Counted from the stretch's first letter, positions 1 through 4,708 are shown. The stretch: DNA of 12,794 bases from Planctomycetota bacterium (GCA_947501605.1 CANMWZ010000061.1:1-12794); one strand, 5' to 3'. Numbers and translations are program-made. The notes: a model not told the origin generated them from the letters alone.

Positions 1-52
1 TCGGCAACGCAGCGGCGAGCCGCTGCATGCGTCGGCCGAGCACGAGCTTCAT
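1..52 (-). CDS. possible 5' end of a gene running off the left edge (MKLVLGRRMQRLAAALP...)
   Basis: ATG at 52-50 is open to the window edge and co-oriented with the upstream genes. The basic-then-Ala-rich start resembles a signal peptide. Only 17 codons are visible. Confidence 0.25.
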   Translation of the reverse strand, partial: MKLVLGRRMQRLAAALP

Positions 53-142
53 CGCAGCTATGTGTTGCGGGAGATTCGGTCGCTCGATCGTCGATGTGTC
101 GCGCTAGCCCATCAGGGACTTGATGCCGCGCCGGAGGTCTAT

Positions 143-259
143 GGCCGCCATTTCGGCCGCGTGCCGGCGGAGTCGGCGATTTTCACTGCAAATCGCCGGT
201 AGAGGCGGCGATTTGCGGAGGCTCCCCAGGGAGCCTCCTGCGCTGGACCCCTTCGGTCC
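143..259. other. cluster of tandem inverted repeats (hairpins) downstream of the argS tail copy
   Basis: Stems read by eye: GGCCG 143-147/CGGCC 154-158; GCAAATCGCCG 188-198/CGGCGATTTGC 206-216 (11 bp, 7-nt loop); GGAGGCTCCC 217-226/GGGAGCCTCC 229-238 (10 bp); GGACC 245-249/GGTCC 255-259. No clear U-tract follows them. Confidence 0.7.
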
Positions 260-264
260 CGTGG

Positions 265-487
265 CCGCCCGTCCGCCTACATCCGTTCCGGCGGCGTGAT
301 GCCGAGCAGCGACAGCCCAGTCACCAACAACCGCCTGGCCGCTTCGACCAGCAACAACCTCGCATCGCGAACCGCCGGCTCGACCCCGAGCACGTGGTGG
401 TCGCGCAGGTAGCTGTGGATCTCGCCCGCCAGCGCGATGGTGTGCGCCGTGACGATGCTCGGTTCGCTCTGCTCGGCCGCGCGTTGC
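265..487 (-). repeat. direct repeat copy A of the argS 3' end (223 bp)
   Basis: Aligns without gaps to 2966-3188 (offset 2701). Mismatches only at 271, 272, 337, 351, 383, 421, 424 and 484. Confidence 0.97.
277..487 (-). pseudogene. argS: argS 3' fragment (last 69 residues, QRAAEQSEPS...GITPPERM, plus stop), lacking its own start
   Basis: The translation is identical to the C-terminus of 2978-4708 except for one A->V change. Homology stops abruptly at 487, 6 bp from the stop codon of the 791-aa gene and out of frame with it. Confidence 0.9.
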
Positions 488-493
488 CGTTCG

Positions 494-2869
494 CTACCGC
501 TGCTCGAACGTGCAGAGGGCGACTTCGTGCGCATCACCGCGCAATGGATCGGTTCGGCCGATGGTCCTGAACCCGCCGGCCGCTGGCTCGACGAGTTCGA
601 GGACGGTCCCTTTTGGCAGCGCGACCGGTAGGCGAACCAGGCCTGAGACGTCGCCTACGCGGATCGACGCCGATTGCGGCAAGCGCACTACCGGACGCAC
701 CAGAGGTTCGTCCGGGCGCTCCTTGTGACGCAGCAGCAGATGGACCTCGCCACGGCGGAACTCGCAGACGGTGTCTACTGGGTGCTTTGCGGTCACTCTT
801 CCAGGTCGCCCGCGGAGGCGTGTGGAAGTGCGCGGGTCCGACCACTCGAATCCGTAGTCACCGGGCGGCAGCGCGGTCTCTGCGATCAGGTCCGTCCCTT
901 CGCGCTTCACGGGGATGGAGCCCAGGCGCCATGGCCATCGCTCCCCGGCGACATCGAGGTCGCGCACGACGTGGATCCAGTCGCCTGCCGCAGGGCCAGG
1001 GTCGCCCGAAAGCTGGAGGCGAACGGGTACTGCGAGCGCGTCGTCGCAGGGGATCTCGACATCGTCGACGCCATCCTCGACGCGCACGAACACCTGGCGC
1101 ATTGCATCTTCTGCTCGGATCGATCGCCGATGGAGGAGCCATCCCGTCGTCGCAGTGCGCTGTAGTTCGAATCGGCCTTCGTGCAGTTCGGCTTGGACCG
1201 AAGTGTTCCAGCGATCTCGATCGGCGAACAGATGGACAGTTCCACCGACGTCCTGGCGCAATGCGCCATTCGCGTCGACCAAATGCCCCCTGAGCACTTT
1301 GGATGGCACAAGTGAGAGTTGCACGGAAAGGCCTCGGCGCGGGATCTCGCATGCGTGCGTCATGTGTCCGACGGCGCGCGCGCGAACGAAGGTGCGCGTC
1401 GATGGCGCAACCTGGAGAACCACTTCGCCGAAGGTGTCCGTCTCCCCGGAAGTGACAAGGCGGACCCCTGCCATGCCGATGCCACTAGGATCCGTGTCCG
1501 GCTCGCGCACCGTCACCTCTGCTGTACGAGCCATCTCCACGCCGCCGGAGCACTCGATCACTTCCACCACAGCGCCAGTGAGCGGTCCGCTTTGCTCCCC
1601 TCGTACGAAGACCCGGATCGGTTGGACCTCTCCCAGATCCTGAACGAAGTCGCGGGTCGTGGCGTCCTCCCGTTCGACCGAGAAATCACTGAGGCTCCAC
1701 GCGAAGGTTACTCCGTCGATCGAGCCTCGCACGATTGCGTCCGGTTGCGCAAGAGGCGGTAGCGCAAGCCATCCATCGATGGTGACCATCGATACGTACT
1801 CGTGGTTCGACGATCCGAATGTGCGCGGATCTCGTGGCATGCGGATGGTGGGGGACTGCAGGGAGGTCGGCCGCCCTCCTCTTCGAATCTGCGCGCGGTC
1901 CGTCGTGCGGCGCGCGAGTACGATTCGTGCTTCGTCGCCGAACAGTACGGGGCCGAACGATGGAACCTCGCGCCATCGTGGGTCGCCGCGGGCGACGGTG
2001 AGGAATGTGTAGTCGTCGTCGCCTGCGCGCCGAGCAAGACGAAAGCTGCCCTGTGCGTCCGTGAGTGCCTTTCCCGAGCCGCTCTGGATGACGACTTCCG
2101 CGCACGGCACGCCATCCCTGTCCGTGACCGAGCCGCGCAGGAGTTGATCGACCAACGGCCCGACGCGAAGCGCGATCGGTGTAGTCGAGCCGTCGACGAG
2201 GAACAGTGCCGGCACGATCGCAGTGCCCTGCTCAGCGGATTGGACCGACCACCAGCCGGGGAGCAGGTCGGCGACCACGAGTGTCCCGCTCGATTCGACC
2301 GTGAGCAGGGACGGTGCGGTACGACTCACCCGGACGTCCTCCGGTTGGCTCGGCTGCTGGAGTCGCAGTTGGATGCGGGACGAGAGGGCGTCGACCAGGG
2401 TCACATCGAAGGTCACTGCGAGTGGTCGTTGCAAGAGCACGGGCTCGCTCCGTTGTTCCAACGGCGTCCGCACCTGTCCCCGACCGTAGACCGAATGTGT
2501 GAACGTCCACGCCAAACCCTCACCTGGTGCGAAGGTGCCCTCCCCGTCGGTGGCGTGGGTTGTCGCTGGAGCTGTCGCCGAAACACGGAACGCGCGCAGA
2601 GCCATGCCGGTCACGGCTCGTGAATCGTTGGCATCGACGAACCGTTGGCGCTCGACTCCGACCGCGTCACGCGACTGCGCAGAAGGCTCGGGGGGCATGA
2701 GCCTCGTTGCCTCGAGGGCGGCGGGCGAAGTAGCAGCCACCGAGTCCGAACCTGATTCCGAAGGCACGCCGGGCGCGACATCTTCGCTGCCGGACAGAAG
2801 CGCAACGCCGCCGCCGAGCAGCAGGATGCCGAACCCTGAGGCGAGCCACTTCGCGGTCCTGGAATGCAT
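494..2869 (-). CDS. membrane-anchored/secreted protein with carboxypeptidase-regulatory-like (CnaB/Ig-like beta-sandwich) repeats, 791 aa
   Basis: N-terminal hydrophobic helix (WLASGFGILLLGGGVALL) and a S/P/A-rich linker. Then repeats of the G-x-V-x-D-x-x-G-x-P...T-D-x-x-G-x-F type: LRGSVTDRDGVPCAEVVI...TDAQGSFRL, VRGEQSGPLTGAVVEV...TDTFGEVVL, LRGHLVDANG...EGRFEL, TDGEGTF. Confidence 0.75.
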   Translation of the reverse strand: MHSRTAKWLASGFGILLLGGGVALLSGSEDVAPGVPSESGSDSVAATSPAALEATRLMPPEPSAQSRDAVGVERQRFVDANDSRAVTGMALRAFRVSATAPATTHATDGEGTFAPGEGLAWTFTHSVYGRGQVRTPLEQRSEPVLLQRPLAVTFDVTLVDALSSRIQLRLQQPSQPEDVRVSRTAPSLLTVESSGTLVVADLLPGWWSVQSAEQGTAIVPALFLVDGSTTPIALRVGPLVDQLLRGSVTDRDGVPCAEVVIQSGSGKALTDAQGSFRLARRAGDDDYTFLTVARGDPRWREVPSFGPVLFGDEARIVLARRTTDRAQIRRGGRPTSLQSPTIRMPRDPRTFGSSNHEYVSMVTIDGWLALPPLAQPDAIVRGSIDGVTFAWSLSDFSVEREDATTRDFVQDLGEVQPIRVFVRGEQSGPLTGAVVEVIECSGGVEMARTAEVTVREPDTDPSGIGMAGVRLVTSGETDTFGEVVLQVAPSTRTFVRARAVGHMTHACEIPRRGLSVQLSLVPSKVLRGHLVDANGALRQDVGGTVHLFADRDRWNTSVQAELHEGRFELQRTATTGWLLHRRSIRAEDAMRQVFVRVEDGVDDVEIPCDDALAVPVRLQLSGDPGPAAGDWIHVVRDLDVAGERWPWRLGSIPVKREGTDLIAETALPPGDYGFEWSDPRTSTRLRGRPGRVTAKHPVDTVCEFRRGEVHLLLRHKERPDEPLVRPVVRLPQSASIRVGDVSGLVRLPVALPKGTVLELVEPAAGGFRTIGRTDPLRGDAHEVALCTFEQR

Positions 2870-2923
2870 GAATCGAGAAGCCTCGTCGGAGCGGCCGGCC
2901 CTATCGCGCGCCCACCCGAGACC

Positions 2924-2941
2924 GGGGGACTCTACTCCCCC
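2924..2941 (-). promoter_or_regulatory. short hairpin GGGGGA-GTAGAG-TCCCCC containing a -10-like TAGAGT, upstream of the cargo gene
   Basis: 6-bp perfect inverted repeat 2924-2929/2936-2941. TAGAGT reads on the minus strand at 2934-2929, about 60 bp before the ATG at 2869. No convincing -35. Confidence 0.3.
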
Positions 2942-2965
2942 AGCGCTTCGCCAGCCCTTTGCACA

Positions 2966-3188
2966 CCGCCCACCCGCCTACATCCGTTCCGGCGGCGTGA
3001 TGCCGAGCAGCGACAGCCCAGTCACCAACAACCGCCTCGCCGCTTCGACCAACAACAACCTCGCATCGCGAACCGCCGGCTCGGCCCCGAGCACGTGGTG
3101 GTCGCGCAGGTAGCTGTGGATTTCACCCGCCAGCGCGATGGTGTGCGCCGTGACGATGCTCGGTTCGCTCTGCTCGGCCGCGCGCTGC
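2966..3188 (-). repeat. direct repeat copy B (3' end of the intact argS plus 12 bp downstream)
   Basis: 215/223 identity to 265-487 by manual alignment. Confidence 0.97.
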
Positions 3189-4708
3189 ACCGCCGTGCCG
3201 AAGTCCAGCATCACCAGCAGCACCTTCTCCGCATCGGCCAACTGAGAGAAGTCGACCTTGTCGATCGCCGGCACCGACTGCTCGCTCTTGCGCAGGATCG
3301 AGGACAGGCGCGCGCAGGCGTAGCTCACGTACGGCCCGGTCTCGCCCTCGAAGTTCAGCATCGTCTCCCAGTCGAACTTCACGTCCTTGATGCGCGAGTT
3401 CTTGAGGTCGTTGAACACGATCGCGGCGACGCCGACTTGTTCGGCGATGCGGTCCTTGTCCTCGAGGTCCGGGTTCTTCTCGGCGATGACCTTCGTCACC
3501 TTTCTGACCGCCTCGTCGAGGATCTCGTCGAGGAACACGGCATTGCCCGAGCGCGACGCGAACTTCTCCCACTTGCCCTCGTCGTTCTTGCTCAGGACAA
3601 GACCGAACGGCACGTGCTCGACGGCAGCAGCGATCGGCTCCTTCATTTTCACCAGCACGCCCTTCAACTGATCGAAGTGCAGCTTCTGCTCGGCGCCGAC
3701 GATGTAGAGGATGCGCGTCGGGTGGTAGGTGCTCTCGCGATAGAAGACCGCGGCGAGATCGCGCGTGTGATACAGCGTCGTGCCGTCGCTCTTGCGCAGC
3801 AGGCAGGGCGTCGCGATGCCCTGCTCCTTGAGCGTGACCACTTCGGCGCCTTCGCTGGTCTCCAGGATGCCCTTCTTGGCGACGCGCTGCATCGCGTCTT
3901 CCATCTTGTCCTCGAAGAAGGACTCGCCGGTGATCGCGTCGAACGTGACCGAGAGGCGTTCGTATGGGCCTTGGAACGCCTTGAGCGACTCGTCGCGCAA
4001 GAACTGCCACATGCGGCGTTCCTTGTTGTCGTCGCCACTCTCCAGCGCCTGGAAGTGCTTCGCCGCCTCGTCGTCGAGCGCCGGGTTGTCCTTCGCCTCT
4101 TTGCTGTAGCGCTTGTAGAGATCGAACATGTAGCGCATCGGCGCTTTTTGCAGTTCGGTCTCGTCGCCCCAGTGCATGTAGGCCGTCATCATCTTGGCGA
4201 AGGGCATGCCCCAGTCGCCGAGGTGGTTGATGCCGTGCACGGTCGCGCCGAGGTGGCGATGGATGCGGCACAGAGACGTGCCGATCACCGTGCTGCGCAT
4301 GTGGCCGATGTGGAAGGGCTTGGCGATGTTCGGCGAGCTGAAGTCGATGCAGACGACCTCCTTGCTCTTGGCGGCGGGGCCGTAGGGCGCTGCGTTCTGC
4401 AGGATGTCGGTCAGCACGTCCCTGGCGAGGGCGGCCCGTTGGAAGCGAAAGTTGACGAACGGCCCGGCAGCGACGGCGGCGGCGACGGTCGCGTCGGGCG
4501 CAATCGCTGCAGCAAGTTCAGCGGCTAGCGCTGGCGGCGCCTTGCCCATGGCCTTCGCCAACTGGAAGGCACCAAGAGCCACGTCGCCGTGCTCGCGGTT
4601 CTTCGGCGGTTCGAGGCGCAGCATCGGCTCGGCGTCCGTGCGGGACAGGCCGAGCCCTTGCAAGGCGTCGAGGAGTCGGTCGCGAAGATGACGTTGGAGT
4701 TGGCTCAC
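2978..4708 (-). CDS. argS: arginine--tRNA ligase (class I), 576 aa, GTG start
   Basis: N-terminal Add1 domain (HGDVA...LAK, AGPFVNF), IDFSSPNIAKPFHIGHMRSTVIG with the HIGH motif, HLGDWG, LRKSDGTTLYHTRDLAA, YIVGAEQKLHF, the KMSK-equivalent KFASRSG, NFEGETGPYVSYACAR and the conserved C-terminal LLGI..PERM. Confidence 0.99.
   Translation of the reverse strand: MSQLQRHLRDRLLDALQGLGLSRTDAEPMLRLEPPKNREHGDVALGAFQLAKAMGKAPPALAAELAAAIAPDATVAAAVAAGPFVNFRFQRAALARDVLTDILQNAAPYGPAAKSKEVVCIDFSSPNIAKPFHIGHMRSTVIGTSLCRIHRHLGATVHGINHLGDWGMPFAKMMTAYMHWGDETELQKAPMRYMFDLYKRYSKEAKDNPALDDEAAKHFQALESGDDNKERRMWQFLRDESLKAFQGPYERLSVTFDAITGESFFEDKMEDAMQRVAKKGILETSEGAEVVTLKEQGIATPCLLRKSDGTTLYHTRDLAAVFYRESTYHPTRILYIVGAEQKLHFDQLKGVLVKMKEPIAAAVEHVPFGLVLSKNDEGKWEKFASRSGNAVFLDEILDEAVRKVTKVIAEKNPDLEDKDRIAEQVGVAAIVFNDLKNSRIKDVKFDWETMLNFEGETGPYVSYACARLSSILRKSEQSVPAIDKVDFSQLADAEKVLLVMLDFGTAVQRAAEQSEPSIVTAHTIALAGEIHSYLRDHHVLGAEPAVRDARLLLVEAARRLLVTGLSLLGITPPERM

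Follow-up and report, generated by a model that had tools for sequence, protein, structure and literature searches.

We report that the 3' end of argS is duplicated around a single gene in a Planctomycetota genome, and that this gene probably entered as foreign DNA on a fragment from a related strain, built in by host recombination through a homologous crossover within argS on one side and an illegitimate joint on the other. The window, i.e., the whole stretch of 12,794 nt that was analysed, is the complete contig C61. Sequence comparison bore out the direct repeat claimed in a previous sequence-only reading: positions 265–487 and 2966–3188 align over 223 nt without gaps, with 8 mismatches and a spacing of 2701 nt, and the repeat comprises the last 208 coding nt of argS (about 69 codons), its TAG stop, and a further 12 nt. 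Of the mismatches, six are coding (five synonymous, one Ala/Val) and two lie past the stop; the copies share no exact match longer than 64 nt. The same reading had called for a BLASTN search for further argS tails; with the repeat as query against the whole 4.65-Mb assembly, blastn returned the two known copies and no others. The features of the locus, from argS downstream, are as follows.

2978..4708, minus strand: argS, arginyl-tRNA synthetase, intact, 576 aa; Pfam tRNA-synt_1d, DALR_1, and Arg_tRNA_synt_N above cut-off; full-length orthologues in relatives
2966..3188, minus strand: upstream 223-nt repeat copy; functional end of argS with its stop codon and the next 12 nt
2870..2965, minus strand: 96-nt spacer between argS and the cargo gene, part of the insert; no blastn similarity (see below)
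494..2869, minus strand (that of argS): cargo gene, 791 aa; ORF with its stop 6 nt from the repeat boundary
488..493, minus strand: 6 nt of sequence between the cargo stop and the putative novel (illegitimate) joint at 487/488
265..487, minus strand: downstream repeat copy, the stranded old argS 3' end; open frame without a start of its own; DALR_1 positions 49–117 only
163..264, minus strand: native DNA 3' of argS; two adjacent hairpins at about 238–217 and 216–188
1..149, no strand: contig overlap, identical to the beginning of contig C50

The true boundary of the downstream copy lies within 483–487, and its first 3 nt precede a mismatch. The hairpin region 163–264 has a DNA fold z of −3.43, with none of 200 shuffles equally stable, and it matches the argS–apt spacer of the same-genus genome G003 (78% over 54 nt) and, more weakly, G004 and L052. 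The 96-nt spacer at 2870–2965 showed no blastn similarity to the argS–apt spacers of four relatives or to the rest of the genome. Promoter and terminator scans gave nothing above shuffles; no tRNA or tmRNA was found, and there was no Rfam match in the window. Contig C50, joined through the 149-nt overlap, carries a 362-aa ORF and then apt. This ORF (L001:358–1446) is membrane-type, family-less, and of lower GC3, and lies between the stranded tail and apt with no tail copy of its own; the two hairpins of window 163–238, both strong, are situated ahead of it. A c-di-GMP-I riboswitch (L001:7193–7278) is situated upstream of a FliA-like sigma factor gene.

As claimed earlier, the repeat encloses one 791-aa gene whose stop is 6 bp from the boundary (ORF 494–2869, minus strand), and nothing mobility-related was found in the insert when the cargo was compared with Pfam, or when the cargo together with six ORFs in alternative frames was compared with NCBIfam. 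Restriction or modification families are likewise absent from the cargo. The product is predicted to be a membrane-anchored exported protein: it has one N-terminal hydrophobic segment at about residues 8–27 (hydropathy peak 1.78) and a weak match to Pfam PF13620 (CarboxypepD_reg-like; E 0.0044, below cut-off), and its top Atlas clusters are CarboxypepD_reg of Planctomycetota (score 0.96, with recognition below the reliability mark). The cargo GC3 of 0.73 falls at the 1.1th percentile. The 90% cluster of the protein has 15 members, of which 13 are full length at 95–100% identity and come from other assemblies; the variants differ at positions shared in patches, which suggests residence in the species long enough for recombination among strains. 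Relatives of the cargo were found in none of 90 family genomes, and a search of 1.84 billion representatives gave eight matches, with only the cargo's own cluster below 1e-10.

The genome was assembled from a metagenome and the repeat lies 264 nt from the contig end, so that the unit might be an assembly chimera of two co-occurring strains, and strain variants were indeed seen in all four runs used below; nevertheless, we consider this explanation highly improbable. The earlier proposal to map reads over 487/488 and 2965/2966 was carried out with Logan contigs from four runs (X1, X4, X8, X10), one of which may be the source sample, under a 31-letter bridging rule; runs containing only part of the stretch (shares 0.24–0.48) were left out. 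The joint 487/488 is bridged in three of the four runs (X1, X4, X8; three studies), reaching 34 letters into the tail, and 2965/2966 also in three (X4, X8, X10) with at least 35 letters; X10 has no cover at 335–668, and X1 ends 13 letters beyond 2965. No run contig spans the whole unit, because these contigs break inside the repeat. All or part of the stretch is contained in 20 of the 23 listed runs, 11 of them with at least half of its words. Such bridging in independent runs rules out misassembly. Moreover, contig overlaps in this assembly are 149 nt, compared with 64 nt for the longest exact match of the repeat, and the cargo protein recurs at full length in other assemblies, so the chimera is already largely refuted. 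Depth in X8 (cargo 3.3–4.3, argS 6.8–9.3, flank 8.1) hints at a mixed population and was left uncounted, as contig depth does not equal cell share.

The flank of the lower repeat copy resembles the argS–apt spacer of G003, G004, and L052, and that of the upper copy does not. The match to the empty spacers of relatives identifies the lower copy as the old chromosomal end. Among 20 argS loci from 19 relatives, 12 contain apt, and argS directly precedes apt in six of these, including the locus of G003; the empty sites sought by the sequence-only reading, with argS joined straight to the apt side, thus exist. The other six loci have unrelated tail-less inserts of 1.3–8 kb between argS and apt, and a duplicated argS tail was seen in none of the 20 loci. 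By this comparison, argS–apt is the ancestral neighbourhood, with an interval that varies in relatives. The same loci support the view that a new argS end came in with the insert, so that the resident one now lies downstream and ArgRS is kept intact.

Differences between the two copies are predominantly silent. At argS, five of the six coding differences are synonymous, against an expected silent share of 0.26–0.32 (P 0.006–0.014 under random change), and pooling with four further units of the same genome, described below, gives 25 of 39 (P < 1e-4). Such a bias indicates that both copies were once selected as ArgRS and hence are alleles from different strains. Some or all of the last ~69 codons of the working gene probably belong to the incoming allele. 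Two observations were counted against the overall explanation given at the outset: the APH-like unit, taken alone, has no silent bias (3/8), and neither an empty allele within the species nor a donor-type locus (cargo without tail) was seen.

Comparison of the genome with itself yielded 46 local repeat pairs, six rows of which represent five units of one type, i.e., a gene, one cargo gene, and then a copy of that gene's 3' end, with genes called by a script using its own codon model and not a standard caller. The duplicated ends belong to argS (223 nt), tex (223 + 63 nt, separated by an internal deletion), an APH-like gene (229 nt), a Ser/Thr kinase gene (59 nt), and a DUF5666 gene (130 nt), so that the aligned tails span 59–286 nt. 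An N-terminal hydrophobic segment is present in three of the five cargos, two of which also give weak CarboxypepD_reg matches, and three of the five have a low GC3. Judging from these units, tail duplication is not argS-specific. The remaining repeat pairs were rejected as paralogue or domain repeats, IS91-like remnants, intergenic repeats (C75, C15), a single copy of a 5' part (C21), and an unclear case (C40). Contigs C52, C55, and C66 of the genome (G000) contain many 100–370-nt repeats flanking small variable gene blocks; from translated motifs, we take these to be remnants of IS91-type transposases. In the C21 case (G000:C21:34354–57107), which mirrors the tail units, 144 nt from the 5' part of a pseudouridine synthase gene are repeated 22.6 kb upstream of the gene and so bracket a 22.6-kb island that looks, from its translations, like a multiheme cytochrome cluster.

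Tail copies of several lengths occur in other genomes. In the same-genus genome G002 (L270:1–11740, G002:C164), three or more tex tails (about 100, 324, and 372 nt) are stacked: the gene end at the contig start is followed by a cargo, a 100-nt neighbour copy fused to the 372-nt tail, another cargo, the ~100-nt tail, an FG-GAP cargo, and the 324-nt tail. The FG-GAP cargo is common to the genome studied here (84.7% over 1813 nt). The fused 100-nt piece copies, at 94%, the 3' end of the convergent far-side neighbour, so that the fusion keeps pieces of both flanking genes, which fits a randomly broken donor fragment and not an attachment site; no other locus shows traces of the two donor ends as clearly. 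Microhomology at the tex joint is at most 4 nt and imperfect. In a genome of another family, G131 (L292:4997–9406, G131:C7), argS is followed by two secreted-type cargo genes of low GC3, a 644-nt argS tail, and then apt; the tail is 99.7% identical to its own argS end, and both differences are silent. In the same-genus G004 (L053), a 173-nt ugd end brackets one low-GC3 gene, an insert that the present genome lacks at ugd.

The metagenome contig L060 (1320–1522) carries an unrelated tail-only argS copy (81% nt identity) behind a different gene; this tail starts within about 3–7 nt of the boundary described here, where contig L062 (1–125) also starts. The near-coincidence of the three boundaries at argS codon 508–510 is not predicted by random breakage and was counted against the preferred explanation; it could mark a preferred breakpoint, e.g., a hot spot for a G+C-rich joint, or be due to chance. 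In G131 the boundary is about 420 nt away, hence the codon 508–510 site is not obligatory. The fixed boundary expected by the earlier reading is therefore not supported, given tails of 223 and 644 nt at argS and the three tail lengths (about 100, 324, and 372 nt) at tex.

A tail-only argS copy beside a full argS was found in one of 87 family genomes and two of 278 order genomes with a match, in protein searches that miss tails under roughly 25 codons. Two further sets, 800 kb of sequence from two other genera and 443 kb of contigs from the same genus, yielded no tail-plus-cargo unit; at the rate of this genome, about one unit would be expected per set, so this null result is weak either way. 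Several candidates were set aside. The second argS match in G003 is a 301-nt contig overlap with four differences and not a tail unit, and the end of its contig C169 exactly at the boundary, 80 nt past the last allele difference, was treated as an assembler effect. The second copy in G010 starts at a contig end and was not classed, G194 has a second, different argS, and G240 has a 127-codon argS remnant that lies between an ABC-F gene and apt and is not preceded by a full gene. In G240 (L293:5093–5473, G240:C103), these last 127 codons are all that remains of the lineage-type argS there, and a more distant argS is located on another contig, likely as a result of gene replacement. In unrelated bacteria, a 144-nt end of a PNPase-like gene surrounds a small gene (L074:1112–1978) and a 92-nt end of an S1-domain gene is duplicated (L084:573–3660).

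Under the explanation that we prefer, the donor fragment would have contained an argS end and the cargo. A homologous crossover within, or 5' of, the last 69 argS codons would have introduced one side, and the other end would have been attached by an illegitimate joint at codon ~508, leaving the old argS end stranded downstream of the cargo. The joint may have formed directly, by homology-facilitated illegitimate recombination, or the fragment may have been circularised and then integrated by a single crossover; both routes give the same product. Gene 3' ends would dominate among targets because the host gene survives there. Once present, the unit could be lost through recombination between the copies or spread among strains through ordinary allele exchange. 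Natural transformation is a plausible route of uptake; the genome encodes ComEC and DprA, but both were also matched in 10–11 of 14 control genomes and, being nearly universal there, lend little weight to competence. Variable tail lengths, unrelated targets, allelic copies, and the absence of an enzyme together argue for host recombination. Of the gene-capture unit proposed from sequence alone, the replacement of the argS 3' end, the intact ArgRS, the lack of an integrase, and homologous recombination as the likeliest route have stood, and specificity for argS is not supported, the same scar being present at four other genes of the genome.

Two other origins of the scar have to be weighed against capture of a related strain's DNA. 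One is a site-specific integrative element that targets argS near codon 508, of which the unit would be a remnant or passenger and whose integrase was lost or acts in trans; we judge this unlikely. It would account for the starts of L060 and L062 near the boundary; the anatomy of e14 at icd/icdC is alike, including silent differences between copies (PMC13626634), and a genome-wide search for tyrosine recombinases (PF00589) gave eight matches. However, the insert holds no integrase or remnant of one, and the nearest PF00589 match is about 23 kb off, past conserved genes; searches of IMG/VR and of phage and plasmid collections gave no argS tail, only the two order genomes have a tail-only copy next to a full argS, and the tail of G131 is 644 nt long. 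In addition, five unrelated targets in one genome would require five lost integrases.

We are still more doubtful of a local duplication, a target duplication in the literal sense, in which the resident tail served as template for the repair of a break at the end of argS, with foreign DNA patched in and the copies drifting apart afterwards. Double-strand breakage is what Furuta 2010 proposes for this class of insertions (PMC2853133), and five of the eight differences in the APH-like unit are non-silent. On the other hand, a dead copy should show the silent share of 0.26–0.32, far from the values at argS and in the pooled units, although the bias could also arise if the live copy exchanged alleles afterwards.

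The argS unit is of an ordinary kind and a clean example of it; the single locus matters little, while the set of units provides a natural record of the entry of accessory genes without a mobile-element enzyme. It suggests that what has been called long target duplication is arguably often allele capture, untied to restriction enzymes, for which the allelic copies, the varied lengths, and the two broken ends in the G002 stack all argue. In uncultured planctomycetes, tail duplication also offers a simple mark by which gene gain may be dated. Direct experimental support for the mechanism of this class is little in the literature covered. A bolder reading, which we regard as improbable, is that gene tails in this planctomycete genus are reusable landing pads, with donor circles stacking at tex, argS, ugd, and further gene ends and a host enzyme acting in trans with a preference for positions such as argS codon 508–510. 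If true, it would imply circles made from fragments broken in both flanking genes and a turnover of the exported carboxypeptidase-regulatory-like repertoire.

Homology-facilitated illegitimate recombination in natural transformation combines a homologous anchor with a microhomology joint (PMC4437187), and the argS unit is similar in having one anchor, one illegitimate joint, and no recombinase. The anchor from a related donor has its counterpart here in the silent-biased allelic copies. This type of recombination usually deletes recipient DNA beside the anchor. The old tail is kept here, hence a joint inside the anchor gene, or a circular intermediate, would be needed. Exchange of minimal mobile elements through both flanks leaves no duplicated tail, unlike the argS case, where the tail is duplicated. 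Like these Neisseria elements, which hold variable genes between conserved flanks and move by homologous recombination (PMC3787668), the argS–apt interval is variably occupied across the family (filled in 6 of 12 loci). The microcin H47 island of E. coli is likewise small, located between direct repeats, and without its own recombinase; its repeats, in contrast, are short, and its RecA-independent excision has been demonstrated (PMC5426353). As in e14 at icd/icdC, a new 3' end is supplied to a housekeeping gene and the old end persists as a fragment with silent differences, but e14 is a 15 kb prophage with SOS-induced excision by site-specific recombination, whereas the argS unit has no integrase and, judging from the tail lengths, probably no fixed boundary (PMC13626634).

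The closest likeness is to insertion with long target duplication (ILTD; Furuta 2010, PMC2853133), with 25–423-bp repeats, often across stop codons; the pairs in its Table 3a range from 24/25 to 417/423, e.g., 224/238 and 195/208. The unit was thus not undescribed, as the sequence-only reading had supposed, since repeats of 200–400 bp without mobility genes are in print (Table 3 of the same paper). In the literature covered, we found no description of an insertion unit specific to argS. As in ILTD (PMC2853133), the argS repeat is long and imperfect (215/223 identical), has two copies in the genome, and exceeds 30 bp at both ends; the insert of 2701 nt is below 20 kb and contains one gene and no mobile-element genes; the repeat spans the stop codon and leaves the target gene intact; empty sites in relatives such as the same-genus G003 have a single target copy; and the duplication length varies between events, here at argS and tex. 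The tex gene is even a shared target, in Neisseria in that study (PMC2853133) and in the present genome. Unlike the units of Furuta 2010 (PMC2853133), the cargo here has no restriction-modification genes, so the restriction-break rationale proposed there is not directly applicable. The present units further differ from ILTD as described there in that the two copies behave like two alleles and unlike a single sequence that was copied, and that several units occur per genome and are stacked in a relative.
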